The notes beneath the pieces were generated by a model. The model ran no database searches. It was not told the origin of the DNA and was given only the letters and a program-made list of their open reading frames with translations. A DNA stretch of 32,000 nt, taken from assembly GCA_001513145.1 (NCBI GenBank), contig LFSP01000007.1:1-32000 (forward strand), read 5' to 3'. Position 1 is the stretch's first letter. Every line of letters begins with the position of its first letter. Shown here in pieces: positions 2,696-17,451 of this stretch. The position numbers and the translations under genes were made by a program. This DNA is from Clostridia bacterium DTU025 (GTDB taxonomy: Bacteria > Bacillota > DTU025).

Positions 2696-3424
2696 TCAGA
2701 GGCTGAATCTGTCGCCCAAGTACAGCTGCCTTGCGGTCACATCGTCGGCGATCTCCCGGGCGCTTCCTGACACTAGAATCCGACCTTCATACATTATGTG
2801 CGCACGGTCCACTATCGCAAGGGTGTCCCGCACGTTGTGGTCGGTGATGAGCACTCCCAGGCCTCTGCGCTTCATGTCGACTACGATCTCCTGCAGCTCG
2901 CCCACGGAGATGGGGTCAACTCCGGTGAAAGGCTCGTCCAGGAGCACGTATGATGGAGAGGCCGCCAGCACCCTGGCGATCTCGACGCGCCTCCGCTCAC
3001 CTCCCGACAGGGTGACACCTGCCTGTCGGGCAAGATGCTCCAGGTTCAGCTCGCGCATCAGCTTCTTGAGACGCTCCCTGCGCCTGGCCCCGTCAGGTTC
3101 GAACAGCTCCAGCACTGCCATGATGTTCTGCTCGACGTTGAGCTTCCTGAAGACTGAAGGCTCCTGCGCTAGATACCCCAGCCCCAGCCTCGACCGGCGC
3201 CACACAGGCAGAAACGTCACGTCCACGCCATCTATCCAGACCCTGCCCGAATCGGGCTGCTCCAGGCCGACCATCATGTAGAAGGTGGTGGTCTTGCCTG
3301 CGCCGTTGGGCCCCAGCAGCCCCACGACCTCTCCCCTTTCTAGGGAGATATCGACGCCGTTCACCACGGTCCGCTGCCGGAAGCTCTTAACCAAGGCCTG
3401 GCCCCTGATGCCCACGAACTGCAC
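2696..3424 (-). CDS. lptB: LPS export ABC transporter ATP-binding protein LptB
   Basis: 242 aa. Walker A in LLGPNGAGKTTTFYMMVGL, signature LSGGERRRVEIARVL, Walker B LLDEPFTGVDP. Length and sequence are typical of LptB, and it lies in an lpt cluster. The start is GTG at 3424; an alternative GTG lies at 3415. Confidence 0.85.
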   Translation of the reverse strand: MQFVGIRGQALVKSFRQRTVVNGVDISLERGEVVGLLGPNGAGKTTTFYMMVGLEQPDSGRVWIDGVDVTFLPVWRRSRLGLGYLAQEPSVFRKLNVEQNIMAVLELFEPDGARRRERLKKLMRELNLEHLARQAGVTLSGGERRRVEIARVLAASPSYVLLDEPFTGVDPISVGELQEIVVDMKRRGLGVLITDHNVRDTLAIVDRAHIMYEGRILVSGSAREIADDVTARQLYLGDRFSL

Positions 3425-3591: not shown

Positions 3592-4836
3592 TCACTGTGC
3601 CCTCACGACGCTGCGCATGCTGTGGATCACTGCATCCACAGCTCCCGAAGGCCCCACGGCCTCGCGGAGTTCCCTGGCTATCCGCTCGGCCCGCGAGGCA
3701 TCTTCCATGACCTCAACGACGGGGATCACCACATCCTCAGGCCTGATGGCGCCTACAGCCTCGTGCGCCACCATCTTTCCGGCTCTGGAGTTGGGCCCCG
3801 ACACCAGTCGCGCGTCACCCTTGGATGAGTGCGGAAGGGAACTGCGGAACCTCTGTAATGCGCTCGACGAGAACGGGAGGCTAATGCGGGAGGAGGTCCT
3901 GGAGACCCCCAGGTAGCCTGGTACGTTGGACGGGGCGGCGACCACATATGGTATGCCGGCGTAGGCCAGCTCATGGCAGATCGGCCCTGGCACCGTCAGG
4001 ACCACATCACACTGGGCCAGCCCGCTGTGGTCGGGGCCGGCGTCGATGGACACCTTCAGACCTTCTGCGGTCACGGCTTGGAAGGGAACGACGGAGCGAT
4101 CGACGGTGGCGTGGGTGGCCTCAACCCGGGCCGGCCGCGCGGGAGGCTTCAGCAGATCGTCCAGGGCGAAAGTGCCTATGAAGGGGGAGATGCGCAGCAC
4201 GAAGCCTATGTCCGGCTGCACTCTGGCGAGGAGCTCCGCCACTCTCAGAAAGAATGGCGCCGCCGCCCTGGCCTGGCGGGCGCTCTCGCCTGGGAATAGC
4301 CCGACGGTGGTTGCGCCGCCGGCAGAGGCGCTCCTTCCCTCGGCGGACAAGCCATCCTGAACCGCCGCGTCGACTGCCAGGTTGCCAACGACCTTCACCG
4401 CGTCAGGCGCCGCACCTGCGGCGATGAGGGCGGCCTGCAGCCGCTCGTCTTCGGCGAGGTACAGCGCAGATCCCCTGGGCTCCACAGGGCACTCACGGGC
4501 CACATAGTGGATCAGGGGATATCTCAACCTGCGCGCGATCATCTGGGCGAAGCCGGCGGAACCTCCCAGGTTCACGACGACGCCCCTGCCGGACACGGTG
4601 AAACCCTTGGGCCTCACGCCGGCAAAGTACAGGCGCCATGACTCCGAAGGCGAGAAGGCTCTCCTGACGCCTTGGTACGCCGACACCACGCGGAGCTCCC
4701 TTCCGGAGACCCCTGCGCCCGGCGACGGGAAAACCCAGATATCCGCCGCGGAGAGTGCCAGAGAAGCCCTGTACGCCACTGGCCGCACAAGGCTGTTCAA
4801 CTCCGCGGGGCCGTTCGATACCAGGACTATGTCCAC
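3592..4836 (-). CDS. LpxB-family (GT19-like) glycosyltransferase: lipid-A-disaccharide synthase or a related enzyme
   Basis: The N-terminus DIVLVSNGPAELNSLV resembles the LpxB/LpxB-related SxGExSGD region. CDVVLTVPGPICHELAYAGIPYVVAAP resembles the LpxB C-terminal ASGTATLE..G.PMVV block. The track start is TTG at 4842; GTG at 4836 has a better-spaced GAGGTGG RBS. Confidence 0.5.
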   Translation of the reverse strand: MDIVLVSNGPAELNSLVRPVAYRASLALSAADIWVFPSPGAGVSGRELRVVSAYQGVRRAFSPSESWRLYFAGVRPKGFTVSGRGVVVNLGGSAGFAQMIARRLRYPLIHYVARECPVEPRGSALYLAEDERLQAALIAAGAAPDAVKVVGNLAVDAAVQDGLSAEGRSASAGGATTVGLFPGESARQARAAAPFFLRVAELLARVQPDIGFVLRISPFIGTFALDDLLKPPARPARVEATHATVDRSVVPFQAVTAEGLKVSIDAGPDHSGLAQCDVVLTVPGPICHELAYAGIPYVVAAPSNVPGYLGVSRTSSRISLPFSSSALQRFRSSLPHSSKGDARLVSGPNSRAGKMVAHEAVGAIRPEDVVIPVVEVMEDASRAERIARELREAVGPSGAVDAVIHSMRSVVRAQ

Positions 4837-4888
4837 GTACAACCACCTCGTCCGAAAGAGCTGCGGTTGCCCTCGGACGCACTACCTT

Positions 4889-5653
4889 CTACAAGCCCGC
4901 TGTTTTCTCCTTCACAGGCACCGACGCGTACGCCAGCGCCCTGGCGTATCGGATGCCTATGCCTGAAGTGGGCGCGGCCAGCACCTGGTCAGGCGGCCCC
5001 TGCTCCACGACGCGGCCTGCGTCCATCAGCACCACGTGGTGGGCTGCCCTCAGCGCGAACCCCGCCTCGTGCGTGACCACCACCATGGTGGCCTCGAGAG
5101 TTCGCGACAGCTTCTCCATGAGGCTCAGTATGTCCACCACCAGCGTGGGATCGAGGGACGCAGTGGGCTCGTCCCACAGGATCAGCGAGGGCTTTTCGGC
5201 GATGGCCCTGGCAATGGCCACGCGCTGCATCTCGCCGCCGGACAGGTGTCGCACGCTCTGGTCCGCCCGAGGGCTCAGACCGACTTCGTCAAGGGCATGC
5301 AGGGCAAGCTCATGAGCGTCAGCGACTGGGCGGCCGGCAGCCACCATGGGCAGCATCACGTTCTGCACCACGCTCAGGTGCGAGATGAGGTTTGCCCTCT
5401 GAAAGACGAAGCCCACGCCCTGCCTGAACTGCTCGAGCTCCGCCTCGGTCATTCGCGTCACATCCCGACCCATCCACGTGATGGTTCCGGAATCCGGCTC
5501 CACCAGCCGGATGATGCTGCGCAGAGCCGTGGACTTGCCGCACCCCGATGGGCCCATCAGGGCCACCACGGAGCCTGTCTCGACGTCCAGGTCCAGGCGG
5601 TCCAGAGCGGTCCTATCCCCGAACGTCACGGTGAGGCCCTGTATCCTGAGCAA
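4889..5653 (-). CDS. ABC transporter ATP-binding protein, FtsE/LolD/MacB-like
   Basis: Walker A GPSGCGKST, the FRQGVGFVFQ..NL block, signature LSGGEMQRVAIARA, Walker B LILWDEPTASLD. The track ORF starts at GTG 5836, but those first 61 residues are Arg/Pro-rich and overlap the upstream gene. TTG at 5653 (MLRIQGLTV...) follows GGAAGGTGG, so it is the preferred start. Confidence 0.75.
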   Translation of the reverse strand: MLRIQGLTVTFGDRTALDRLDLDVETGSVVALMGPSGCGKSTALRSIIRLVEPDSGTITWMGRDVTRMTEAELEQFRQGVGFVFQRANLISHLSVVQNVMLPMVAAGRPVADAHELALHALDEVGLSPRADQSVRHLSGGEMQRVAIARAIAEKPSLILWDEPTASLDPTLVVDILSLMEKLSRTLEATMVVVTHEAGFALRAAHHVVLMDAGRVVEQGPPDQVLAAPTSGIGIRYARALAYASVPVKEKTAGL

Positions 5654-8061
5654 AGCGTGATCCCACCTTCCGATGCTGATCTCATCTTCCTGCCCGCACC
5701 CTGGCGGTGCAGAGCGCCGGCTTGGCGCGACTTGCGGGCGAACGCTGTCCTTCCCCTGTTGAAAAGGCTGAGCAACCCGGGCCTGGTGGCGGGCACCACT
5801 ACCTCCCGCATGACGCAGGCTGGACCGATACCCCACGCCACCCCAGCTTCAACCTCGTCACGGTTGCATGGCGACAGCCTGTCAGCAGCTCCTCCGGCCA
5901 ACGCTCCCAGCGCCGCGCCCACCGGCAGGAACCACGCCAATCCGAGGCCGCCAAGCCTCGCCCCTGATATGGCCGCGGTGGCCATGAGGGTAACGGAGCC
6001 TGCTGCAGCGCCGTACGCTGCAGCCTCCACGCGGGCCACGCGGCCCCTGCGGCTCCCGAGCCCGTGCCCACCGGGCCTCACCATGGCCAGCGTGCCTGAG
6101 GCCACCGTGGCGTGGTCCACCACCAGCGATGCGGCGGTTATCACCATGCATACGATGCCGGCGATGGTGGCGCGCACGGTGGCGAGGAGCGATTGCACCT
6201 CGGCGCCTACCCCGCGGGTGACCATTCCCGCGGGCCCAACGAACACTCCGTAGTCGTCTCCAAGCTCTCTCTTCACGGCCCGGGCCAACTCTTCCGAAGC
6301 GGCACCTGCCTCCACGATGAACCTCGCCTGATCCTTCCCACCGCTGTCACTGTAAAGCTTGTCGATGGCGCTCACCACAGCCAGAGCCTGGCTTCCGCTG
6401 AGCGTCGGCACGCTGGAGCGAAGCTGCTCCAGGGCATCGCGCAGTGCCTCCGAGTCGAGGTCGGCCAGGGTCTTCAGCTGCTGCCCGGCCTGGGCCACCA
6501 GGTCGCCCATGGCATCCAGATCCATGCTCTGCAACGCCTCAACCATGGAGGCCGCCGCATCTGACGCATCACCGATGAGGCCTGCCCCGCCTGCCATCCG
6601 TCCCGCAGCGCTCTCCATTGCTGATAGTCTCTCCCTGAAGCCTGCCAGCGTCCCGCGCCACTGGGCCAAGTCCTCTATGAGCCTGTCGTAGCTGCGCGTC
6701 AGCAGCGAGACGCCGGATGCCACCTCAGACAGCCTGTCGATGGCGCCGATACACTGGTCGGTGAGCTTGAGCAGCAGTCTCACCCCGTCGAGGCTCAACG
6801 GCATCCTGCCCCCTGCCCTGGCACTCTCCAGGGCAGCGCGCAGCCCTGCCACGGCCTGTTCGGCTCCTTCGAACGACTGCAGCACCTGCTCGATCTCCTG
6901 TGCCTGCTGCACTGCGGCGCGGGCAGTCTCCGCCACTCCCGCCGTGGAGCGCTGGATCCCTGCCGCTGCCCTTTCCAGTGCCGCGGCCGCGGACATCACG
7001 TCTGCGCTTCCCACAGGCCTGCCTTGGGCATCGTAGGCCACGATTGGCTGCGACCTGCCGTCTGCCGCATCCTGTCCTGCCGAGCCCTCAACGCTTTCAC
7101 CTGCGGCATGGCCCCCCAACGCCTCGAACACCACGGCCGGCTCGGAGATGACGACGGCGGTGGCGGAGACACCGTCCGCGTCCACCACCTGGGCGTCCGC
7201 CCTGCGGACACCGAGGCGAAGAACCAGCCTGTCGCCTCTGGTCACCTTGGCCCCTGCATCCAACCTCACGCGTACGCTGGGAGCCCACGACAGCGCAGCC
7301 TGCCTCAGCAGCGCCACGGCCTCCGGCAGCTCATCCGAACCGGAGCCGTTGCGCGCGCCGGCGGTCCACACCCTCACGTCAGAAGCCTGCGCGCCGCCTG
7401 TTGTCCTGCCCGCGCCGGCCTCCACCAGCTGCCGGACATGCCCTTCATCTATCTGGCGTCCGTCGGCGGCGCTCACCTGCACCTCGTGAAGCGCCTGCAG
7501 CTTGCCTTCGATCTCGTCCGACACCGTCTGGACTTCGTCCGCAGAGCGCAGCACGAAATGCAGGTTCGACCCATCTCTCAGGACGAACCTGATGCTCTCG
7601 TCGCTCTCGCCTCGGCCGATGTTCTCCTGCAGTGCCTCCGCGGCTTCGCCTGACAGCCCCGTCACGGTGACCCTGGGCTCCGCCACGATGGTCCTTCCGA
7701 GGTAGCCCGGAACGTCCCTCACGGCGTCCAGCGCCCACCTGAACTTGGCCTCGTCGGCGCCCTCCAGATCAATCATGAAATTGGATCTACCCAGCAACGT
7801 GACGCCCTCGCTGACTCGGATGCCCGGCGTCGACTGGGCCAGGGCCATCAGCGCCCCCTTGGCCTCGAGCCGCATGTCGCTGCGCACGTGGACCACCAGC
7901 TCGTGCTGGTCCTCGTCCCCGAGAATGCCCCTGGCGGTGCCTGCGAAGAAGCCGTGGGTGGCCCATGCAGTCATGAAAGCCACAGCCGAACCCAGCACGA
8001 CTGTGGCGAGTATAAGAGCGATAACGTCTTTGATGTAGCCCTTACGAAGAAGAGCGTACAT
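5626..8061 (-). CDS. Large membrane protein with FtsX/MacB-like topology (1 TM, ~600-aa extracytoplasmic region, 3 C-terminal TMs); probable permease partner of the adjacent ATPase
   Basis: 811 aa counted from the ATG at 8061, which has RBS GGGGGTGA 5 nt upstream. N-terminal TM is VIALILATVVLGSAVAFMTAW. The C-terminal hydrophobic segments are IAGIVCMVITAASLVV, AAAYGAAAGSVTLMATAAI and LGLAWFLPVGAALGALAGGAA. The central part has alpha/beta-looking segments followed by about 250 aa of Ala/Leu/Glu helical repeats. Confidence 0.5.
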   Translation of the reverse strand: MYALLRKGYIKDVIALILATVVLGSAVAFMTAWATHGFFAGTARGILGDEDQHELVVHVRSDMRLEAKGALMALAQSTPGIRVSEGVTLLGRSNFMIDLEGADEAKFRWALDAVRDVPGYLGRTIVAEPRVTVTGLSGEAAEALQENIGRGESDESIRFVLRDGSNLHFVLRSADEVQTVSDEIEGKLQALHEVQVSAADGRQIDEGHVRQLVEAGAGRTTGGAQASDVRVWTAGARNGSGSDELPEAVALLRQAALSWAPSVRVRLDAGAKVTRGDRLVLRLGVRRADAQVVDADGVSATAVVISEPAVVFEALGGHAAGESVEGSAGQDAADGRSQPIVAYDAQGRPVGSADVMSAAAALERAAAGIQRSTAGVAETARAAVQQAQEIEQVLQSFEGAEQAVAGLRAALESARAGGRMPLSLDGVRLLLKLTDQCIGAIDRLSEVASGVSLLTRSYDRLIEDLAQWRGTLAGFRERLSAMESAAGRMAGGAGLIGDASDAAASMVEALQSMDLDAMGDLVAQAGQQLKTLADLDSEALRDALEQLRSSVPTLSGSQALAVVSAIDKLYSDSGGKDQARFIVEAGAASEELARAVKRELGDDYGVFVGPAGMVTRGVGAEVQSLLATVRATIAGIVCMVITAASLVVDHATVASGTLAMVRPGGHGLGSRRGRVARVEAAAYGAAAGSVTLMATAAISGARLGGLGLAWFLPVGAALGALAGGAADRLSPCNRDEVEAGVAWGIGPACVMREVVVPATRPGLLSLFNRGRTAFARKSRQAGALHRQGAGRKMRSASEGGITLCSGYRASP

Positions 8062-8086
8062 GCAGCTCACCCCCGCTTCACACAGA

Positions 8087-8149: not shown

Positions 8150-8833
8150 CTAGTCTTCTATTTCGAAGGTGATCTCCATGGACTTGCCTTCGGCCTCGAC
8201 GCGCTCTCTGTCGGTGTACACCGTGGCCCTGTCGCACCTGATGCTCTCGTTGTCCTCTCCAGTGATGCTCACATCGCCCTCAAGCACGATGCGCCTCTCG
8301 GAGCTGGAGTACGAGGCTGTGCGGCAGCGAGCCACCTGTCCTCCCTTAGACACGGTGACGTCGCCGTCTGCGTCGAAATCCTGCGTGGCAGTGGAGATCT
8401 TCAGGGTGCTGCAGTCTAGCGTGATGGTGGTGGTCACCGGGTTGCCCTCTTCATCCATTTCGGCCTGCGGCTCGATCTTGGTGAGCCTGACCCCTCCTGA
8501 GAACTCGGCCCTGTCTTCCTTAAGGTAGATGTTCATTACCTCAGCCGTCACGGTGACTTCGCCCTGCACCAGCGTGACGCCGCCGGACAGGAGCGCCGTG
8601 CCGGCATCGATGTTCACGGTGGCCGATGACGACGTGATCACCACGTCGTCGTATTCAATGGTGACTCCGCCCTCAATGGTTGTATCACCTTTGGTGCCCT
8701 GGTAGGTCAGGCGGCTCTCTGGTCCGGTGGTCACCCTGACCGACTTGGCCGCCTCCGCGGACAGCGGCAAGACCACCATCGACGCCATGATCGCCAGGGC
8801 CAGCCCTCGCACAAGCGCACGCTTCACGTTCAT
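8150..8833 (-). CDS. lptA: LptA-like periplasmic LPS transport protein (OstA-like beta-jellyroll)
   Basis: 227 aa. Signal peptide MNVKRALVRGLALAIMASMVVLPLSAEA. It then shows repetitive OstA_N-type strands (IEGGVTIEYDDVVITSSSATVNIDAGTALLSGGVTLVQGEVTVTAE...), and it sits directly downstream of lptC. Confidence 0.7.
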   Translation of the reverse strand: MNVKRALVRGLALAIMASMVVLPLSAEAAKSVRVTTGPESRLTYQGTKGDTTIEGGVTIEYDDVVITSSSATVNIDAGTALLSGGVTLVQGEVTVTAEVMNIYLKEDRAEFSGGVRLTKIEPQAEMDEEGNPVTTTITLDCSTLKISTATQDFDADGDVTVSKGGQVARCRTASYSSSERRIVLEGDVSITGEDNESIRCDRATVYTDRERVEAEGKSMEITFEIED

Positions 8834-8849
8834 CCCTCCTATCTATCGC

Positions 8850-9518
8850 TCAGTCGCCGATCTCGAACTCGATGGTGGTGGGGCCAGTGGCCTCCAGTGC
8901 CTCGGCCTTCGGATCGAACACTATTCTGCCGCCCCTCACGGCTATGTCGCCGGAGGAGCTCGTGCCGGTGATGACCAGCTGGCCCTCGGAATAGAGCTTG
9001 TCAGCCGTCACGTCAAGCTGCAGCGAGTCCACCTTCACCTCGCCTGACGACGTGGTGATCACCGCGGGGCCAGGCACCACCGCCCTGGATTCGTCAGGTT
9101 TCCAGATCACCTGGTCGGAACGGAGCAGCTGCTCTCCGTCCTGATGGAACACCACCCCGCCGTCCAGCACCAACTCCGCGGTTCTCGCCGCGTACTGGCC
9201 GCTGCCGGCCGTGAAGGTCATGTAAGGCTCGCCATCACGCATTATCTCCCCGTGGATGATGCCACGGACGTGGGTGGAGCTGGACCGCTGGTCTCCGACG
9301 ACGCTCACCGACTCGGCCGCGATGCGCCAGGCTGTGACGCCCGCGTCCATGCCCTGTATCACAGCGCCGTCTATCACCAGCTGCTCTCTGGGGCCCGTCC
9401 GGGGCCGCGAGTCCTCAGCCTGCTCCTCCGGCCTGTTCAGGACGAACCCGTAGACGTACAGACACGCGACGATGAGAACCGCCGCCGCCACCACTGCCCT
9501 GTGTGCCCGTGGGCTCAT
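8850..9518 (-). CDS. lptC: LptC-like membrane-anchored LPS transport protein
   Basis: 222 aa. N-terminal TM anchor AVVAAAVLIVACLYVYGFVL followed by OstA/LptC-like beta-rich sequence. Strong RBS GGGAGGGA 5 nt before the ATG at 9518. It lies between the lptF/G-lptD ORF and lptA. Confidence 0.65.
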   Translation of the reverse strand: MSPRAHRAVVAAAVLIVACLYVYGFVLNRPEEQAEDSRPRTGPREQLVIDGAVIQGMDAGVTAWRIAAESVSVVGDQRSSSTHVRGIIHGEIMRDGEPYMTFTAGSGQYAARTAELVLDGGVVFHQDGEQLLRSDQVIWKPDESRAVVPGPAVITTSSGEVKVDSLQLDVTADKLYSEGQLVITGTSSSGDIAVRGGRIVFDPKAEALEATGPTTIEFEIGD

Positions 9519-9554: not shown

Positions 9555-12500
9555 CTACTTGAATATGATCCCTTCCTCCCCGAGACCGAAGCCAATCGGC
9601 ATGCCTGGCAGAGCCTTGAGCCTGAACTCCAACCACACCCTTCCGGTGGTGTGCTGGTACATGAGGGACACCTCGCGGCAGTGAAGGTCCTTCGTGATGC
9701 CTATGTCACCCCTGATGATGCCACCCTTCACTACGTCGTATATGCCCGCCCACTGCAGCCTCCAGTCAGACCCCAGCTTCAGGCTGGCCGAGCTCTCAAA
9801 CCTGGTCATCTTGGAATCCGTGAGGTCGTAATTGAACCCCGCCTTCAGCTCCAGGTCAGGCGCGGGCGACGCCGTCACCTTCAAGGTGGCGGTATTGTGG
9901 CTATTGAACGAAGGATAGAACCTGCCCGTTGCCTCCACGGTCACGCCCTTCCACACGGCGGCCGAGGCGCTGGCGGTCACAGCCCCAAAGGTGCCTGTAA
10001 GGAAGTCGTACGACGCGCCCGCAGTCAGCCGGAATCGGCCCACTGACGATGTCAGCGAGGCCGACACGGAACTGGACTCCGACATCTGGTCGAACCGGAA
10101 GGGCGAGTGGCCCTCCGTCACGGAACCGGAGTAGGTCAGCCTCAGTTGCGCCCAGTCCGCCGGGATCACGGTGGCGCTAGCGGTGAAGCTGGCGCCGGCG
10201 CGGGAGGCATCCTCGAACGAGTAGATGCTACCCCTGGCCGAAGCCGAGGCGTCAAGGCGCAGCCACGAGGCCGGCCTCAGGGTGTTCAGGCTCAACGACG
10301 CCTCCGCTTCGCCCTTGGACGACGCCACCTCCGTGAGCACGCCGTCGCGAATGGAGTCTTCCCTGTAAACGCCGAACAGGAGCTTCGCGCCTGCCGTCAC
10401 CGGGAGATTCCCGATCTTCAGCTGCGACACGCTGGCCGTGAGCTCCGGGGCCCTGCGCAGCTGGCGAAAGGGTGGAGGCGTGCTTCCCTCGCCCGATTCA
10501 TCGTCGCCCTCCTCATCTATGTGGATCTGCTCCTGAAAGAGGGCGGTGTAGGTTATTCCGCTGACCGAGGCGTTGGCCGCAGCTCTGATGTTCACCACGT
10601 TCTGCTTGACCTCATCCCCCACGCGGTTCAGCCTGTAGGAGCCGTCGGCCGTGAGCCTGATCACGTCGGCGACGGTGGAGGAATGCCTCAGGGTGGCGGT
10701 GGTAAGAACCGAGTCGGCGGCTGAATCGGTACGCCTGTGGGAGAAGGAGAAGTCCGACGTGCCCTTGGCCACGCGCCGCTGAAGCGAGAGGGAGTACGTG
10801 CGCTCCTCCGAGGGAGTGCCCAGCGATACGTAGTCCCGGTAGGTGTACCCGCCGCCCAGCGATAGCCCATCCTCGGGCTGAGCCTTCAGCCCCAGCTGGA
10901 GGGTGGTGTCCACTGAGGACGTGGATCTGTTGAAGAGCTCATACGCCGAGAGGTCGAGCTCGGCCCGGTCGAACCCTAGCCTGTGGGAGATGCCCATAGC
11001 GGGGCCAAGGAGCTGAAAGTAGTCCAAGAGGAGCTTGCCCCGGGAGTTCTCGTTCACGGAGTAGTTGGTGACGGTGCGTATGTACCAGCCCTCCCTCACG
11101 CCCCAGCCGATCTTGGGAAGTTCGAAGCCTTCGTCTTCCTTCAGCGGTATCGTGAGTTTGGGAAGCCTCGCCAGCCTGAGCTGGCCCTCGTAGTACAACA
11201 CCCCGTGCAGCACCACCCTGTCGTCCACGTAGAAGTCAAGGGCCTCCACTTCCAGCCTGTAATGGGGCTGCTCCAGCTCGCACGAGGTGATGCTGGCGTG
11301 CTCAAGGTGGAAATCCTCACCCTGGCGCGACAGCACGTCTCCAGATACGTAAAGGTAACCCTCCACCTGCTGCACCGAGAGCTTCGCGCGGGCCCCGTGC
11401 ACCTTCACGTCGCCTGTGGCCAGGTCCAAGGTGGCCGCATCGCCCCGAAGCTCCTCCGACCCCTCTATGATCACGACGTTCCCGGTGAACGTGGCGGTCT
11501 TCAGGTTGACATACATCTCTGCGCTGTCGGAGCGGATCACGGTGTCATCGAAGGACGTTTCCACTCCTCCCCAGGCTGTCCATAGCCCATCGCTGCCGTC
11601 GTAGACTATGTGCTCGGCGCGTATCCTCACCAGGGTGGTTCCTGAGCTAGCCGCCGCAGACGCCCCACTTGGAAGGGCCAGGCCCGCCGCGCACAGCAGG
11701 AGGGCAACCAGCGCAAGCGCCGCGACGCCCCGGCGCCTCGTCCTGCGCCGCCATTCGGCGCCTCGAAGGAGAGTCACCCCCAGCGCCAGGAAGGCCGAGT
11801 TGGGAAGCCACGCCGCCACAAGGGGCGGGATGGTACCCTTGATCCCCAGCGACCTGCAGACAGCCGAGAACACGTAGTACGCCAGCGCCAGCACGGATGC
11901 CGCCACAACACCGAAGTAGCCGCCTGCGTGGCGCGGCGACTTGGTGACCAGGGGCGCGCCCACCACCGCGAACACCAGCGCCGCGAAGGGCTGGGCCACC
12001 TTCAGGTGGTACTCCACCTCAAGGCCGCTCACCCGGACGCCGCTGCGCCGGAAGAGGTCGATGTGGCGCGCGAGCTCCTGCCGGGTCATCTCGGAGGGCT
12101 CCTTCTGGCTGGACGTGAATCCCTCCATGGTCTCGTCCATTGGCACGGTCAGGGTGTCGAAGGAAATGGCCATGGTCACCTGGCCCTCGCGGTCTAGCTC
12201 GTGGATATGTCCGTCTTCCAAGACCCAGCTGCCCTGCTGCACCCTGCCGCGGGCGGCGGTGAGCAGGCGCGGGAAGGTCGAGGATCCGGTCTCGTAGATC
12301 ATGACCCGGCTGATGGTGCCCGCGTCCCTGTTCACCTGGCCCACGTAGAAGTACCTGTCGCCAGGGGCCTTGAAGAACACGTCCTGTTCCACGGCGGGCA
12401 TCGCCTCACCGAACACGATCTCCCTGAATATCCTCTGGGACTCGTGGTTCGCCCTGGGGACGATCTCCTCGCCCAGGGTGAACAGGCCGCCGCTTATGGC

Positions 12501-12824
12501 CACGCCCAGCACCACCAGGGGAAGGGCGAGCCTGGCGAAGGACACGCCGGCGGCTCGGATGGTGTCGAGCTCGGAATCCTTGGCGAGGCGCCCGAGGCCC
12601 AGCATGGTGGCGAATAACACCGCGATGGGCCCCGCTTCAAGCACGATGCCCGGCAGGCTGTAGACGAGCATGCGCACCACAGCCAGCACGGGCACCTTTC
12701 TCTGCACTATGAAGTCGACCAACATGAACAGCTGGCCGCTGAGGATTATGATCACAAAGGCTGAAATGGACATCGCGAGGGGCCCAAGAAACTCGCGCAC
12801 AACGTATCTGTCGAGAATCCTCAT
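9555..12824 (-). CDS. Single ORF fusing an LptF/LptG-family permease (N-terminal ~360 aa) to an LptD/OstA-like protein (C-terminal ~700 aa)
   Basis: The frame is uninterrupted from the ATG at 12824 (MRILDRYVVREFLGP, a classic YjgP/YjgQ start; RBS GAGGGG 8 nt upstream) to the TAG at 9555. Residues ~400-520 look like OstA_N. ASITSCELEQPHYRLEVEALDFYVDDRVVLHGVLYYEGQLRLARLPKLTIPL followed by GWGVREGWYIRT matches the conserved LptD core pattern (TxC ... P.fy.P). The C-terminus is beta-strand-like and ends GIIFK. Confidence 0.75.
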   Translation of the reverse strand: MRILDRYVVREFLGPLAMSISAFVIIILSGQLFMLVDFIVQRKVPVLAVVRMLVYSLPGIVLEAGPIAVLFATMLGLGRLAKDSELDTIRAAGVSFARLALPLVVLGVAISGGLFTLGEEIVPRANHESQRIFREIVFGEAMPAVEQDVFFKAPGDRYFYVGQVNRDAGTISRVMIYETGSSTFPRLLTAARGRVQQGSWVLEDGHIHELDREGQVTMAISFDTLTVPMDETMEGFTSSQKEPSEMTRQELARHIDLFRRSGVRVSGLEVEYHLKVAQPFAALVFAVVGAPLVTKSPRHAGGYFGVVAASVLALAYYVFSAVCRSLGIKGTIPPLVAAWLPNSAFLALGVTLLRGAEWRRRTRRRGVAALALVALLLCAAGLALPSGASAAASSGTTLVRIRAEHIVYDGSDGLWTAWGGVETSFDDTVIRSDSAEMYVNLKTATFTGNVVIIEGSEELRGDAATLDLATGDVKVHGARAKLSVQQVEGYLYVSGDVLSRQGEDFHLEHASITSCELEQPHYRLEVEALDFYVDDRVVLHGVLYYEGQLRLARLPKLTIPLKEDEGFELPKIGWGVREGWYIRTVTNYSVNENSRGKLLLDYFQLLGPAMGISHRLGFDRAELDLSAYELFNRSTSSVDTTLQLGLKAQPEDGLSLGGGYTYRDYVSLGTPSEERTYSLSLQRRVAKGTSDFSFSHRRTDSAADSVLTTATLRHSSTVADVIRLTADGSYRLNRVGDEVKQNVVNIRAAANASVSGITYTALFQEQIHIDEEGDDESGEGSTPPPFRQLRRAPELTASVSQLKIGNLPVTAGAKLLFGVYREDSIRDGVLTEVASSKGEAEASLSLNTLRPASWLRLDASASARGSIYSFEDASRAGASFTASATVIPADWAQLRLTYSGSVTEGHSPFRFDQMSESSSVSASLTSSVGRFRLTAGASYDFLTGTFGAVTASASAAVWKGVTVEATGRFYPSFNSHNTATLKVTASPAPDLELKAGFNYDLTDSKMTRFESSASLKLGSDWRLQWAGIYDVVKGGIIRGDIGITKDLHCREVSLMYQHTTGRVWLEFRLKALPGMPIGFGLGEEGIIFK

Positions 12825-12862
12825 AGCGCAAACCCCTCGCAAGTGCCCGCGGGCCTACACTG

Positions 12863-13318
12863 CTACTTGGCCCCGCCCTTCTTCAGCACGTCCTCGGTGA
12901 TGTCGATTCCGCCGAGATGAACGACGCTGTCGTCAATGACCACAGTGACGCCCTTCTCCTTGGCCACGGCGGCGATGGCGTCTTCCAGGCTCTTCTGGGC
13001 AGGCTCCAGCACAGACCTGGCGTAGTCGTTGTACTGCTTGTTGTACTGCTCCAGCAGGCTGGTCCTTTCGGCCTCGTCCTTGCCGGCGGCCTTGGCGTTC
13101 AGCTCCTCCTCGAGCTCAGCCTTCTTCTTGGCTATGCTCTCCCATGCGGCCTTCATGGCGGGGAACTCCTGGCCCACCCTGGCGCCGTTAAGCCTTCCGA
13201 TCACCACGTTCTCGCCAGCTGCGCGAAGCACGGCCATGTTGGTGACCGCCAGGCCGATTCCGACCAGAAGAGAACATAGGAACAAGGTCAACAGCGCCTT
13301 AGGCAGATTCTTAAACAT
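12863..13318 (-). CDS. OmpH/Skp-family periplasmic chaperone
   Basis: About 150 aa. N-terminal hydrophobic signal, then a Lys/Glu/Ala coiled-coil arm (KKKAELEEELNAKAAGKDEAERTSLLEQYNKQYNDYARSVLEP), then KEKGVTVVIDDSVV, typical of the Skp C-terminus. It sits immediately downstream of bamA. The track start is 13327; the second ATG at 13318 has a better-spaced GAAAGGA RBS. Confidence 0.7.
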   Translation of the reverse strand: MFKNLPKALLTLFLCSLLVGIGLAVTNMAVLRAAGENVVIGRLNGARVGQEFPAMKAAWESIAKKKAELEEELNAKAAGKDEAERTSLLEQYNKQYNDYARSVLEPAQKSLEDAIAAVAKEKGVTVVIDDSVVHLGGIDITEDVLKKGGAK

Positions 13319-13370
13319 CCAAGTCATCCTTTCTTAAGTGCCTACTTAGCACTGAGTAGCGTACTGCTTG

Positions 13371-13409: not shown

Positions 13410-15140
13410 CTAGAAGGTCTGGCCGAAACTGAAGTACAGCTGACCGCCCTGCTTGCTGATGCCGTAGTCGATCCTTATGGTACCGAGGAACGGAACGGTG
13501 AGGCGTGCGCCGATGCCGTAGCCCACCTTAGTGGCGGAGAAGTCCGGGCTATCTCCGATGTCCCAGGCCTGGCCCGCGTCGACGAACGCGACGCCCTGCA
13601 GGTTGTCGATGATCTTGAACCTGTACTCGGCGTTGGCGAAGATCATCCTGTCACCCTCGATGTCGCCGTACTTGTAGCCGCGCACGGTCTCGGCTCCGCC
13701 TAGCACGAACCTCTCCTGCTCAGGAAGGTCGGTCAGGCCCCAGCCGCCGCTGACCCTGGCAGCCAGCACGTGGCCCTCATGCACCTGCAGGTAGCCCGAG
13801 CCTTCGGCCTGCAGCTTGGTGAAGTGGTTGTCGCCGCCAAGGAGGCCGCCGGCGTACTCGATGGAGCCTGACAGGCGGTGGCCAGCCGACGGGTTCCACA
13901 GGTCGTTCCTCTCATCGTTGACTGCAGACAAGGTTATCGAGCGGGTGACGCCGCCCGGTGGTATCTCGTGGGCCATGCCAAGGTCGGCCGGGGTGTTCAC
14001 GGCGTTGTCCCACTTGAACTTCACGTACGCCCTGGTGTTCAGGGACAGCTTGGTTCCGAGGCTCACATCGGCGCCGGTGCGCCTCTGGGAGTACGGGATA
14101 GGCTCGATAGGCTCGGGGTCTTCCTCACCCTCTGCAGGTTCCGGCGTGAACTTCTTGTCCGCTGTCCTGTTGTACAGGTTCAGGCCCAGCGACATCTTGC
14201 CCGTCTTGCCCAGCCACGGCTCGTAGAAGCCCAGCTCGTAGTTGGCCCTGCCCATGCCGAACTCGGCCTTGACGTTGATGGTCTGGGCGTTGCCGAGGAA
14301 GTTCTCATCTCCAAGCTGCAGGTAGCCCATGATCCCCGTGGCCGAGCTGTAGCTGAGGTTCATGTTGGCCACGCCGGTCTTCCTTTCAGTGAAAACGTAC
14401 GTCACCGCGAACTCGGGCCTTCCCTGGATAGGCTCCACCCTGGCCTGAACGTCCTCGAACGCCCCCAGCATGTAGAGGGCCCTACGGTCGTTGTTGATCG
14501 TGGTGACGTTTATGACCTCGCCCTCTTTGAGGGTGATGGTGCGCCTGGCCACCGCGGGCTTGGTCTTCTCCAGGCCCTCAAGGCGTATCTCGGCCACCGT
14601 CCATTCCACGAAGTTCACCTGAAGCTCGGCATCGTCGCCGAGCACCGGCTCAATGCTGACCCAGTAGCCCTTGTCGCTGTACAGCTTCGACAGCTTCTCC
14701 AGGTCTGATCTGAGTGTTGCCGCGTTCAGCTGCTCCCCAGCCTTGGTCTCCATCACGGCGAGGAGCTCCCCCGTGGGCACCTGTTGGTTGCCGGCCAGCC
14801 TCACGTCCTTCAGCACCGGGAACTCCCTGACGAAGAAGATGAGCTTGTAGCCGTCGAGGTGCGGGACGGTATTGGCGCTGAGCTCCATGAACCAGCCCAT
14901 CCTGTCGAGCCTGGCGAAGGTCTCGTTCACCGCCTGCTCGGTGATGTCGTCACCGATCTTCAAAGTAATCTGTTCCAGAATGAGGTCGGTATCTACTTGG
15001 CTGTTCCCCTGCACTTCAACGGCGGTGAGCTTGCCCAGCGGCTTGGTCTGGGCAAGAGCGCCAGGAGCAGCAACCAATACCATCGCGATCAGGATCGCCA
15101 CCGCGATGCTGCAAGACTTTCCGGCACGGAATGAGTTCAT
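13410..15140 (-). CDS. bamA: BamA/Omp85-family outer membrane protein assembly factor
   Basis: Signal peptide MNSFRAGKSCSIAVAILIAMVLVAAPGALAQ from the ATG at 15140 (RBS GGGAGGGAG). POTRA-like repeats (VEVQGNSQV..., DVRLAGNQQV..., EIRLEGLEKT...). Gly/Tyr-rich beta-barrel ending GGQLYFSFGQTF with a C-terminal Phe beta-signal. The track start at 15227 adds 29 unlikely residues. Confidence 0.85.
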   Translation of the reverse strand: MNSFRAGKSCSIAVAILIAMVLVAAPGALAQTKPLGKLTAVEVQGNSQVDTDLILEQITLKIGDDITEQAVNETFARLDRMGWFMELSANTVPHLDGYKLIFFVREFPVLKDVRLAGNQQVPTGELLAVMETKAGEQLNAATLRSDLEKLSKLYSDKGYWVSIEPVLGDDAELQVNFVEWTVAEIRLEGLEKTKPAVARRTITLKEGEVINVTTINNDRRALYMLGAFEDVQARVEPIQGRPEFAVTYVFTERKTGVANMNLSYSSATGIMGYLQLGDENFLGNAQTINVKAEFGMGRANYELGFYEPWLGKTGKMSLGLNLYNRTADKKFTPEPAEGEEDPEPIEPIPYSQRRTGADVSLGTKLSLNTRAYVKFKWDNAVNTPADLGMAHEIPPGGVTRSITLSAVNDERNDLWNPSAGHRLSGSIEYAGGLLGGDNHFTKLQAEGSGYLQVHEGHVLAARVSGGWGLTDLPEQERFVLGGAETVRGYKYGDIEGDRMIFANAEYRFKIIDNLQGVAFVDAGQAWDIGDSPDFSATKVGYGIGARLTVPFLGTIRIDYGISKQGGQLYFSFGQTF

Positions 15141-15273
15141 CGATCTCCCTCCCACGTGTGGCCCCAAGACGCCGCATTCGAAAATGACGAACAACGAACG
15201 ACGGCGCACGGAGGCGCTGAACGTCATAGCAATGATCCCTCAGTAATTCCTTATCTTGTTCGCCTTACACTGG

Positions 15274-17340
15274 TCAGTTCCTGCCGATGTTCCACGGCAT
15301 CGAATCGATCCAGGAGGCAAGCTGGTCTAGGACATATTGACGCACACGGGACCCGATAAGTTTCGCAAGCAGGTCACCTTGTGCGGAAAAGTCGCCGGCA
15401 GGCTGGCCATCCTGGCCCGCTGCCTTCGCAAGCTCGAGCTGGATGTCGCCGAGCTCCCCGAAGGCGGTGACCAGAACGTCGTCGCCGCCCAGGCTCTCGA
15501 CGATGGTCAGCGCGAACCGCGGCGCGGCGCCGGGCTCCATCGTCGCCTGCCCGCCCAGGACGCGGAGGGTTTGCCCGGAGACCGCGATCTGCCCCTCGCC
15601 AAGGCCCACCTGGCCTTCGAAGGTGGGGTTGCGCAGGCTCCCCGCCACACGCACCTCCGAGCCTGGCATCACCTCAGCCCAGGTTTCTCCCCGCTCCACC
15701 GTGAGAGCCTCGCCGGCCCTCAGCGTGACGTCGACGGCGATGTCTGGAATGGTCGGCACGGAGGAGAAGCCGGCCGTCACGGCGTCGATGGTACCGTCTC
15801 CGACGGTTATCGCTCCGGCCACTGAGCCCTGGGCGTAGGAAAGGCTGGCATCAACCACGGCGTTCAGGAGCTGATGGGACAGGCTGACTTGGCCGGCCTC
15901 AAGGCTCCAACAGTCGCCAGCTCCTTCGACTCTGACACTGCCCCCGCCGAAGTCCGCCTGAAGCGTTGCAGAGCCCAGAGCGATGGTTGGATCAGGCTCG
16001 TGGCCCGCCTGAGCAGCCGCGGCTCCTCCGTCGAACTTCAGTGAGCCACGCACCTTCGAGAACGTGCCCTCAACGCCCTCCACCTCCAGCTCGCCGTCGG
16101 CCAGCTGGAGCTCGCCTGCGAGCCCGGAGGCGTCCACTTTCAGCTGGGCCCTCCAATCCAGCCACCCTCGGACCATCTCCGCCGATGCGCCGGCCCCGCT
16201 TTCAGGCAGCAGGGGTCTTGCGGCGTCCAAGATCCGGTCCAGGCCGGTCTTGCCCCCGTCCAGGCGCGCGAGGCCCGACTCTCCGTCGTATCTGACGTCC
16301 GCCCGTAGCTTCCAGTCTTCAAGTTCAATGGAATCCCACTTGAGGGACGAGACCTCCACGTCGCCGCCAGCCTGCACCAGCGGCCTGCCGCCCTTCAGCC
16401 GGGCGTCAAGCTCTCCGACGAAGCCCAGCTCCGCGTGGCCCTCTGGGCCCGTGATGCGCATGTCGAGCCTGTCGTCAGAGGACTCGCTCAGCTTGAGCGC
16501 TCCCTGGACAGTCAACCCGCCTCCACCTGCGACATCGAACCGCACGTCAGCGGCGGCCAGAGACTCAAGCCCGAGGGGCAGGCGCAGCTGCACGGCCCCC
16601 TCAAGCTGCCACTGGCTTGCAGCGATGCTCGCCGTGTCAACCGCCAGGATGAAGCCGCCCTCGCCGGACCGAGCCTGATCCAGAGCCAGTTCGGCGCTGC
16701 GCACCGCCACAGGCCCGAACCGATGGGTCACAATGACGCAGTCGTACAGGCCGATCGGAGCGTTCCACCCCGCCAGGTAGCTCGACCCGCCGCGCGCGCC
16801 AACGTTCTTCGGCTGCTTCTTCGGCGCTGCGGGCCCGGCGCCGGCGTCGGCCCGTGCGCCGTCGGATCCCCCGGCCTCAGTCGAGGCCACCGACGCCGCC
16901 ACTCCCGCATCCGCCAGCCTCCGGCCCAGGGCATACAGTTGGTCCTCGTGGCCGCGGAACCCGTGGAGGTCCACCCTGACCACGCTGGCCAGAGGGTCGA
17001 CCCTCCCGGAGATGAAGTCCGCCAGGTCGTACGTGATGGCAACCGTGTCGACGCTGATGCCGCCGTGAGCGCCCCGGCCACCGTGACCGCCCTGGCGGCC
17101 CTCGGCGCAGGCCTTGCCGCCGTCACCAGCTTCGATGGTGACGCCTTTCAGCTTGAGCTGGCGACCGTCGATCACCGCCACCTCAGCGACGTCAACCTCC
17201 GCGCCACCCAACAGCGCAGACAGCACTGACTCAGCCGCCACCGCGCCCAGCCACGTTCTATTCTTCACGATACACGCGCCGGCTGCAACTGCCAACACAA
17301 GCAGCGTCAGGCACACGATGCGCCCTCGCCTCATCCGCAT
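15274..17340 (-). CDS. TamB/AsmA-like translocation and assembly module protein (short form)
   Basis: About 688 aa from the ATG at 17340. N-terminal signal anchor RIVCLTLLVLAVAAGACIV. The rest is long, repetitive Gly/Ala/Val/Asp beta-rich sequence typical of TamB/DUF490. It sits immediately upstream of bamA, as in other OM clusters. Confidence 0.55.
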   Translation of the reverse strand: MRMRRGRIVCLTLLVLAVAAGACIVKNRTWLGAVAAESVLSALLGGAEVDVAEVAVIDGRQLKLKGVTIEAGDGGKACAEGRQGGHGGRGAHGGISVDTVAITYDLADFISGRVDPLASVVRVDLHGFRGHEDQLYALGRRLADAGVAASVASTEAGGSDGARADAGAGPAAPKKQPKNVGARGGSSYLAGWNAPIGLYDCVIVTHRFGPVAVRSAELALDQARSGEGGFILAVDTASIAASQWQLEGAVQLRLPLGLESLAAADVRFDVAGGGGLTVQGALKLSESSDDRLDMRITGPEGHAELGFVGELDARLKGGRPLVQAGGDVEVSSLKWDSIELEDWKLRADVRYDGESGLARLDGGKTGLDRILDAARPLLPESGAGASAEMVRGWLDWRAQLKVDASGLAGELQLADGELEVEGVEGTFSKVRGSLKFDGGAAAAQAGHEPDPTIALGSATLQADFGGGSVRVEGAGDCWSLEAGQVSLSHQLLNAVVDASLSYAQGSVAGAITVGDGTIDAVTAGFSSVPTIPDIAVDVTLRAGEALTVERGETWAEVMPGSEVRVAGSLRNPTFEGQVGLGEGQIAVSGQTLRVLGGQATMEPGAAPRFALTIVESLGGDDVLVTAFGELGDIQLELAKAAGQDGQPAGDFSAQGDLLAKLIGSRVRQYVLDQLASWIDSMPWNIGRN

Positions 17341-17451
17341 CACCACGATCCTACATACGCGACACGCGCCCCACATACCTGCCTCTAGCTGGGCGTTAAT
17401 CGGGGGAAACTGGGGAACTGCTTGCCGAGCCAGGCTGAGCCCGCCTGGTAT

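Follow-up and report, generated by a model that had tools for sequence, protein, structure and literature searches.

Does an open reading frame (ORF) that runs without interruption from an LptF/G permease into an LptD barrel encode one protein or two? The question is raised by such a frame in Clostridia bacterium DTU025 (Bacillota; GenBank assembly GCA_001513145.1), within positions 1 to 32,000 of contig LFSP01000007.1, a stretch of 32,000 nucleotides that is referred to here as the window. To our knowledge, LptF/G and LptD are located in different membranes in every characterised Lpt system, and it is the anatomy of the junction between the two halves that provides an answer in silico. We propose that the fused product is probably a polyprotein, predicted from its sequence to be cut by signal peptidase I at the signal peptide that LptD has retained. 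An earlier note on this DNA had described an embedded signal peptide at the fusion junction; the anatomy of a Sec signal peptide with a signal peptidase I site is indeed present, and comparison with relatives indicates that the anatomy is conserved and the sequence is not.

The fused gene and its two halves

The minus-strand open frame at 9555..12842 is a single uninterrupted ORF encoding 1089 amino acids (aa) when counted from the ATG at 12824 (MRILDRY), which is the start common to all homologues; the fused lptF/G–lptD gene thus occupies 9555..12824, with its stop codon at 9555-9557. The permease part consists of residues 1-353 (11766..12824, minus strand), with six transmembrane (TM) helices and a periplasmic beta-jellyroll at residues 150-228. 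Pfam LptF_LptG (PF03739) aligns over its full length with residues 6-354 (310.4 bits, cut-off 27.9; E 1.9e-92), and the two NCBIfam equivalog models both score just under their cut-offs (LptG, 223 vs 240; LptF, 190 vs 230), so the first half is described as a generic LptF/G. An AlphaFold2 (AF2) model built with 18 homologues, with a mean predicted local distance difference test (pLDDT) score of 80, contains the six TM helices and places the jellyroll between TM3 and TM4. In a Foldseek search of the PDB the permease half matches LptG 6mit_G (E 4.2e-16; TMt 0.67), with the LptG and LptF matches ranking after those to LptD.

The top Foldseek match is to full-length LptD, 5iv9_A, with an E value of 3.7e-28 over 806 columns. 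The LptD part begins with an OstA-like N-terminal beta-jellyroll at residues 399-560 (11145..11630, minus strand), recognised by AF2, Pfam and Foldseek, which is followed by the C-terminal beta-barrel at residues 571-1089 (9558..11114, minus strand), where pLDDT is mostly 80-95. Pfam LptD_N (PF03968) matches residues 430-471 at 23.1 bits (cut-off 20.4) and DUF3769 matches residues 890-944 weakly at 21.0 bits (cut-off 20.5); Pfam LptD (PF04453) has no match to the window protein. By both hidden Markov models and fold, the ORF is a real LptF/G joined in frame to a real and full LptD. Two invariant cysteines, C515 in the jellyroll and C1049 in the barrel, are at places that are analogous to those of the LptD interdomain disulfide, and this placement fits a predicted periplasmic fate of the LptD part.

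The window genome (97% complete) has a single LptF/G gene, as does each other genome of the class, and two LptF/G paralogues are found in same-phylum genomes whose genes are unfused. Because there is just one such gene per genome, the permease is presumably a homodimer, by analogy with that of Acetonema longum (PMC13018214).

Anatomy of the joint

The sequence that had been quoted for the joint, ...LGVTLLRGAEW RRRTRRR GVAALALVALLLCAAGLALPSGASA AASSGTT..., matches the minus-strand translation exactly, and its coordinates of 11655-11777 are also correct, with the GTG at 11777 encoding V350 and the codon for A390 ending at 11655. The signal-peptide-like segment begins at residue 354 after the six TM helices, the sixth of which is the last helix of the LptF/G fold by Pfam, AF2 and Foldseek alike, in keeping with the position that the earlier note had given it; only in unfused orthologues is such a segment N-terminal. 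Residues R354-R365 (RGAEWRRRTRRR; 11730..11765, minus strand) form the cytoplasmic loop and n-region, with a net charge of +6. The h-region, G366-L384 (GVAALALVALLLCAAGLAL; 11673..11729, minus strand), is a run of 19 uncharged residues, which would constitute TM7 if it were not removed. It is also the top Kyte-Doolittle peak of the whole 1089-aa protein, reaching 2.59 with a 19-residue window compared with 1.75-2.42 for the six LptF/G TM helices.

The c-region, P385-A390 (PSGASA; 11655..11672, minus strand), leads to a predicted signal peptidase I site at A390↓A391 (arrows denote predicted cleavage). It agrees with the rules for this enzyme in having a helix breaker (P385), small residues at -3 and -1 (both Ala), and Ala rather than Pro at +1, and cleavage at the adjacent AA↓A or AAA↓S is possible too. 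In the AF2 model a helix at residues 367-387 is located inside a low-confidence stretch (361-396; pLDDT <50), and approximately 11 residues separate the end of this helix (387) from the first strand of the jellyroll (399). In solved LptB2FG structures LptF and LptG have six TM helices, with both ends in the cytoplasm. The C-terminus of the permease part would therefore be cytoplasmic, and with the +6 loop, which fits the positive-inside rule, the seventh hydrophobic segment should run in-to-out and export whatever is downstream, which supports the orientation given to this segment in the note.

Other roles for the segment were considered and rejected. The sequence T362-R-R-R-G-V resembles the twin-arginine translocation (Tat) motif S/T-R-R-x-F-L-K only loosely and the motif is not kept in relatives; outer-membrane barrels, moreover, pass through Sec unfolded, which counts against Tat. 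As a lipoprotein signal, both LLLC378 and the cysteines of relatives lack a lipobox, having L, F or I at -1, and the Cys is not conserved. A functional TM7 packed against the permease is at odds with the 17% identity of the h-region among relatives, its many insertions and deletions, and a pLDDT of <50.

Conservation of the joint within the class

The GTDB class to which the window belongs contains one order, four families, eight genera and 21 species representatives. The fusion is uninterrupted in every genome of the class wherever the contig is intact, with identities of 34-65%, and same-phylum genomes outside of the class have separate lptF/G and lptD genes, or none. When the junctions are compared, all 20 fused loci of the class keep a positively charged n-region, an uncharged core, a Pro or Gly helix breaker and an AxA-type site. 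The net charge of the n-region ranges from +2 to +10, the -1 residue is Ala in all 20, and the helix breaker is at -4 to -7; hydrophobic cores of relatives have 12-27 residues, and the loop preceding the core varies in length and is rich in Gly, Pro and Arg.

The sequence of the joint has diverged far more than its surroundings. Mean pairwise identity in the class is 13–17% at the joint (17% in the h-region) with many insertions and deletions, compared with 48–61% in TM1–6 and 40–45% in LptD. Because of this low identity and the many indels, set against the conserved TM1-6, the joint is, judged by its alignment, evolving like a signal peptide and unlike a helix packed in a transporter, and its conserved anatomy indicates that selection maintains it in that role.

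We also note the structure of one locus in family f4, L023 (G018:C10:443156-446377), in which the fused frame ceases to be open at about residue 627 and the remainder of LptD matches in pieces, interrupted by a TGA and a TAG. Either decay of this copy or errors in the assembly may account for this.

Unfused orthologues and the origin of the joint

A simple relationship is seen with related Bacillota in which lptF/G and lptD are separate but adjacent and in the same order, with lptD starting -4 to +12 nt from the lptF/G stop codon. Unfused pairs were compared in Limnochordia metagenome-assembled genomes (MAGs), Ca. Darwinibacter acetoxidans and biogas-reactor MAGs (loci L002, L003, L025, L026, L056 and L100). 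The unfused LptD proteins carry an ordinary N-terminal signal peptide (for example MLRRDRRVFLIAWIVCTLFAILPPTIVVA↓EE) at the position homologous to the joint, with which the joint aligns. At L003, lptF/G ends with ...RAEKVR and its stop codon, and after 4 nt lptD begins MRGDGGKRDTRRAGVVAVVL...; the two genes overlap by 4 nt at L025, where LptD starts MRRVNVKAKKIVSILFVLFFAVAAVQA↓E, and are separated by a 10-nt gap at L026, where LptD starts MRFFHFSVILIVSLLLLSTKTVQA↓E. Gaps of -1 to +12 nt are found in the further Limnochordia and biogas MAGs and in Ca. Darwinibacter acetoxidans.

In several of the unfused biogas-reactor and Limnochordia-type MAGs, as at L056:2491-2760 and L100:2491-2760, lptF/G and lptD are in the same frame with one stop codon between them and the lptD Met is six to seven codons further on. 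The fused state is therefore a single substitution away from the split state. From this alignment, the joint is predicted to be the Sec signal peptide with which LptD originally began, and which has persisted since the adjacent lptF/G and lptD genes became one frame through loss of the intervening stop codon.

Fusions in other lineages

The fusion is not confined to the class. A phmmer search of 1.84 billion representatives recovers approximately 25 additional clusters in which LptF/G proteins of 1000–1200 aa carry an LptD-like tail, and the named carriers are in Thermotogota, Candidatus Bipolaricaulia/Acetothermia and Halanaerobiales, the last of which includes the cultured organisms Halanaerobium saccharolyticum, H. 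kushneri and Fuchsiella alkaliacetigena. All 36 of the distant junctions that were examined, from Halanaerobiales, Thermotogota, Bipolaricaulia and further lineages, have a positively charged loop (+1 to +7), a core of 12–25 residues and an AxA-type site that is usually followed by E, D or Q. Many of these cores have just 12–15 residues, as is usual for signal peptides that are cleaved, and a permanent anchor would be expected to be longer. The Thermotogota homologue recovered by phmmer with the window protein (P0148/P0213; 1139 aa), for example, has a K-rich loop, a 13-residue core and the putative site VFS↓Q. The simple scorer used to call cleavage sites picks a neighbouring site in a few of the distant sequences (L031, L082 and P0132), for which better sites are evident by eye a few residues upstream.

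The fused and split states have also interchanged repeatedly. In a tree of the LptD part there are at least six changes between fused and split labels, at least three of which are forced by well-supported branches, and the window's class, Halanaerobiales and Thermotogota/Bipolaricaulia form separate fused clades. This tree is from a quick maximum-likelihood search (LG+G4; 59 rows) with some long branches, and it is used only to show that the state is labile. Functional equivalence of the two states would be the simplest explanation for such repeated changes. Two loci from a single MAG (L059 and L060; Y23_30dBSe4.bin.27), together with L055, are nested within the fused Halanaerobiales clade with LptF/G and LptD on different contigs, which suggests that this lineage has split again and that fission occurs as well as fusion.

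Public databases name the fused proteins 'LptF/LptG family permease'. One 686-aa fragment of a fused LptF/G–LptD (P0220, in the cluster of P0147) is named 'transcriptional antiterminator Rof' by one source, which looks like an annotation error.

A polyprotein or a single chain

If the fused product is a polyprotein, its permease part would insert co-translationally with six TM helices and end in the cytoplasm, where the basic loop RRRTRRR would stay. The hydrophobic core (366-384) would then insert in-to-out as a seventh helix and start the Sec-dependent export of the LptD part of approximately 700 residues, with signal peptidase I predicted to cut after A-S-A (A390↓A391). One product would be an LptF/G subunit of about 390 aa, with the used signal peptide left at its C-terminus as a helix of low conservation. 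The other would be mature LptD, about 700 aa long, which Skp would escort and BamA would insert into the outer membrane. There it would function in a conventional Lpt bridge together with LptC, LptA and LptB, each encoded by its own gene. The fused and split arrangements would thus yield the same mature proteins. From the fused gene, LptD would be made 1:1 with each permease subunit.

Several points weigh against cleavage. The call of a signal peptide is based on rule-based features, from the simple scorer, together with conservation; the 19-residue uncharged core of the window is long enough for a stable TM anchor; and Ala-rich AxA strings are common in high-GC proteins, such that the window alone is weak evidence. 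Some LptD may also arise by internal initiation as an additional source in those lineages that keep an in-frame ATG. The sole published view of a homologue, the 'pABC permease' of Thermotoga maritima, draws a single envelope-spanning protein (PMC10160955), and an uncleaved signal anchor forming a permanent TM7 would likewise give one polypeptide from the inner-membrane permease to the outer-membrane LptD barrel. We consider such an anchor unlikely, even though the frame is kept open across the whole class and in several phyla. The AxA-type site and the Pro/Gly breaker, neither of which an anchor needs, are present in 56 of 56 junctions; the cores of many relatives, at 12-15 residues, are too short for a stable anchor; and the repeated flipping of the fused and split states on the tree also counts against it. 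A linker of about 11 residues would moreover pin the LptA-docking edge of LptD to the inner membrane, which sits poorly with the retention of separate LptC and LptA genes beside the fused one. The T. maritima protein is enriched in the outer 'toga' fraction (PMC10160955), which a released LptD would explain no less well; we count this in favour of cutting. There is similarly little likelihood that the uncut protein, with six or seven inner-membrane helices, acts as a covalent single-chain lipid bridge over the whole envelope with the AxA motif serving some other purpose. Nor is the junction pattern, on the comparisons above, a matter of chance, as every one of the 20 fused loci of the class shows it, as do the 36 distant fusions, some of them low-GC, and it aligns with the N-terminal signal peptides of unfused LptD. 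Given the conserved -3/-1 pattern, the signal-peptide-like evolution of the joint and the equivalence with split orthologues, the sequence comparisons favour cutting over retention of a seventh TM helix.

That LptD comes mainly from an internal start near the joint, with its own N-terminal signal peptide and the read-through fusion as a minor by-product, seems improbable. It would draw on the in-frame ATG or GTG that 12 of the 20 fused relatives, among them the whole of family f4, keep at the ancestral lptD start just before the basic stretch, in some cases with an AAGGTG-like motif 11-12 nt upstream; in family f4, however, an AGGAGG directly abuts the ATG with a spacing of 0. At this position the window has TGG (W358) and seven other relatives also have no start codon, and internal initiation is therefore not a general route to LptD. 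The sole in-frame ATG, GTG or TTG between TM6 and the hydrophobic core of the window is the GTG at 11777 (V350; 11775..11777, minus strand), which is inside TM6; its upstream sequence, ttcctggcgctgggg, has no Shine-Dalgarno motif of the GAGG type, unlike the real starts in the cluster (GAGG or GGAGG), and the next in-frame start is the GTG at V399, downstream of the predicted cleavage site. The earlier note had singled out this GTG, found no convincing ribosome-binding site for it and concluded that independent translation of LptD is not well supported, and we concur, there being no usable internal start in the window. In the fused loci the lack of a stop codon also means that ribosomes translating the permease must read through into LptD anyway. 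Separation of the halves by another protease or at another site, such as by a rhomboid or site-2 protease in the helix or by lipoprotein signal peptidase at a Cys, is more doubtful still. The core of the window does contain C378 and several relatives have a Cys near the c-region, but there is no canonical lipobox at these unconserved cysteines, and the conserved feature is the -3/-1 pattern of small residues expected for signal peptidase I. Finally, there is next to no chance that an assembly or sequencing artefact has joined two genes, since 20 species-level genomes of the class share this frame without interruption, and it is found again in dozens of independent contigs from metagenomes as well as in isolates of other lineages that are in culture.

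Two further features of the region near the ancestral lptD start are noted. An in-frame ATG (GTG in L013) is present at this position in L007, L011-L014 and L016-L023, corresponding to 11751-11753 in the window. The window also has an out-of-frame ATG at 11752-11754 (GAATGG; minus strand) with a GAGG at 11761-11764, 6 nt upstream, which opens a 35-codon frame ending with TAG. This frame encodes no signal peptide, and the ATG is taken as a chance match or a relic of the old start.

Genomic context

The fused gene is part of a cluster with the order TamB-like gene, BamA, OmpH/Skp, fused ORF, LptC-like, LptA-like, an FtsX-like/ABC pair and LptB, with sporulation genes further on; the locus is an outer-membrane cluster of two-membraned, spore-forming Bacillota. 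Upstream of the fused gene, and also on the minus strand, are the OmpH/Skp-like chaperone (12863..13327; Pfam OmpH, E 1e-12) and BamA (13410..15227; Omp85 and POTRA domains by Pfam and NCBIfam), which would insert the released LptD. On its other side are the LptC-like protein with an N-terminal TM helix (8850..9518, minus strand; Pfam LptC, E 1.3e-5; TIGR04409) and the LptA-like periplasmic protein (8150..8833, minus strand; Pfam and NCBIfam), which has an ordinary N-terminal signal peptide (...PLSAEA↓AKS), and the LptB ATPase is at 2696..3424 (minus strand; TIGR04406, 335.6 bits against a cut-off of 240). For three large minus-strand ORFs of the cluster, at 5626-8070 (814 aa), 15274-17376 (700 aa) and 3592-4842 (416 aa), neither Pfam nor NCBIfam gives a match at the thresholds applied.

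Signal peptidase I is also encoded in the window genome (TIGR02227, 154.8 bits), and the presence of this enzyme with Skp, BamA, LptC, LptA and LptB is consistent with a polyprotein. LptE is not evident in the genome, although no search aimed at it was made; it is reported as absent from diderm Firmicutes (PMC13018214).

Comparison with known systems

The window protein adds a member from a Bacillota class to a fusion family that is known from the literature on Thermotoga. In T. maritima, the 'pABC permease' (UniProt G4FGC1) is described by Sexton et al. (PNAS 2023; PMC10160955) as a fusion of LptF/G, LptA and LptD domains that is conserved in all Thermotogae, enriched in the toga and drawn as spanning the envelope; the paper never mentions an internal signal peptide or cleavage. 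The window ORF is similar in having LptF/G, a jellyroll and an LptD-like barrel in one lineage-conserved frame. It differs in that its cluster has LptB, LptC and LptA, whereas T. maritima is without lipopolysaccharide (LPS) synthesis, and the Thermotogota/Bipolaricaulia fusions form a clade separate from the window's class on the LptD tree. The signal-peptide reading is absent from the published account, with whose envelope-spanning picture it competes as a hypothesis that is well supported by sequence comparison.

Other fusions and absences have been reported. A PagP–LptD fusion has been described (PMC8346858), and our literature searches found no description of an LptF/G–LptD fusion in Bacillota/Firmicutes. 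In Halanaerobiales and Negativicutes, Antunes et al. (2016; PMC5007114) found one LptF/G and did not find LptD, and LptD is likewise reported as not found for 'atypical diderms' (PMC8871954). For Halanaerobiales and the window's class, at the least, this 'missing' LptD sits inside the ORFs named as permeases.

The folds are those of the canonical Escherichia coli Lpt machine (LptB2FGC–LptA–LptDE), as judged by Foldseek. The window genome is also like Acetonema longum in having a single LptF/G gene and no evident LptE; in that organism LptF/G is a homodimer and LptD is a separate protein with a Sec signal peptide for signal peptidase I (PMC13018214). Both E. coli and A. longum differ from the window in that LptD is a separate gene with such a signal peptide at its N-terminus. 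The unfused Bacillota pairs have the same order, the same proteins and a homologous signal peptide, and differ by a stop codon and a separately translated LptD.

If the polyprotein reading is correct, an outer-membrane barrel is synthesized as the C-terminal part of a polytopic inner-membrane protein, from which signal peptidase I sets it free. The fusion is an easy and repeated event, and would then be a natural example of a Sec signal peptide that tolerates being moved to the middle of a protein. The cultured carriers, H. saccharolyticum, H. kushneri, F. alkaliacetigena and, according to PMC10160955, T. maritima, make this reading practically testable.

Layouts of this kind are found elsewhere, and the polyprotein proposed here can be set beside two of them. 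Flavivirus polyproteins alternate TM segments with internal signal sequences, at which host signal peptidase cleaves to generate membrane and lumenal proteins. They resemble the window protein in layout and differ in being viral and eukaryotic, with processing at the endoplasmic reticulum, and have no evolutionary link to it. The FbcH cytochrome b/c1 polyprotein of Bradyrhizobium japonicum, reportedly studied by Thöny-Meyer et al. in 1989 and 1991, is said to be one precursor that is processed into two proteins, a polytopic inner-membrane protein followed by an exported protein, with an internal signal-peptide-like segment joining them. The existence of the FbcH fusion is documented (PMC4986455). 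As with the window protein, two proteins that are separate genes elsewhere are joined by a signal-peptide-like segment; the families are unrelated, and whereas both FbcH products stay at the inner membrane, the second product of the window would reach the outer membrane as a beta-barrel. By analogy, FbcH is the nearest mechanistic precedent for the proposed processing of the LptF/G–LptD fusion.

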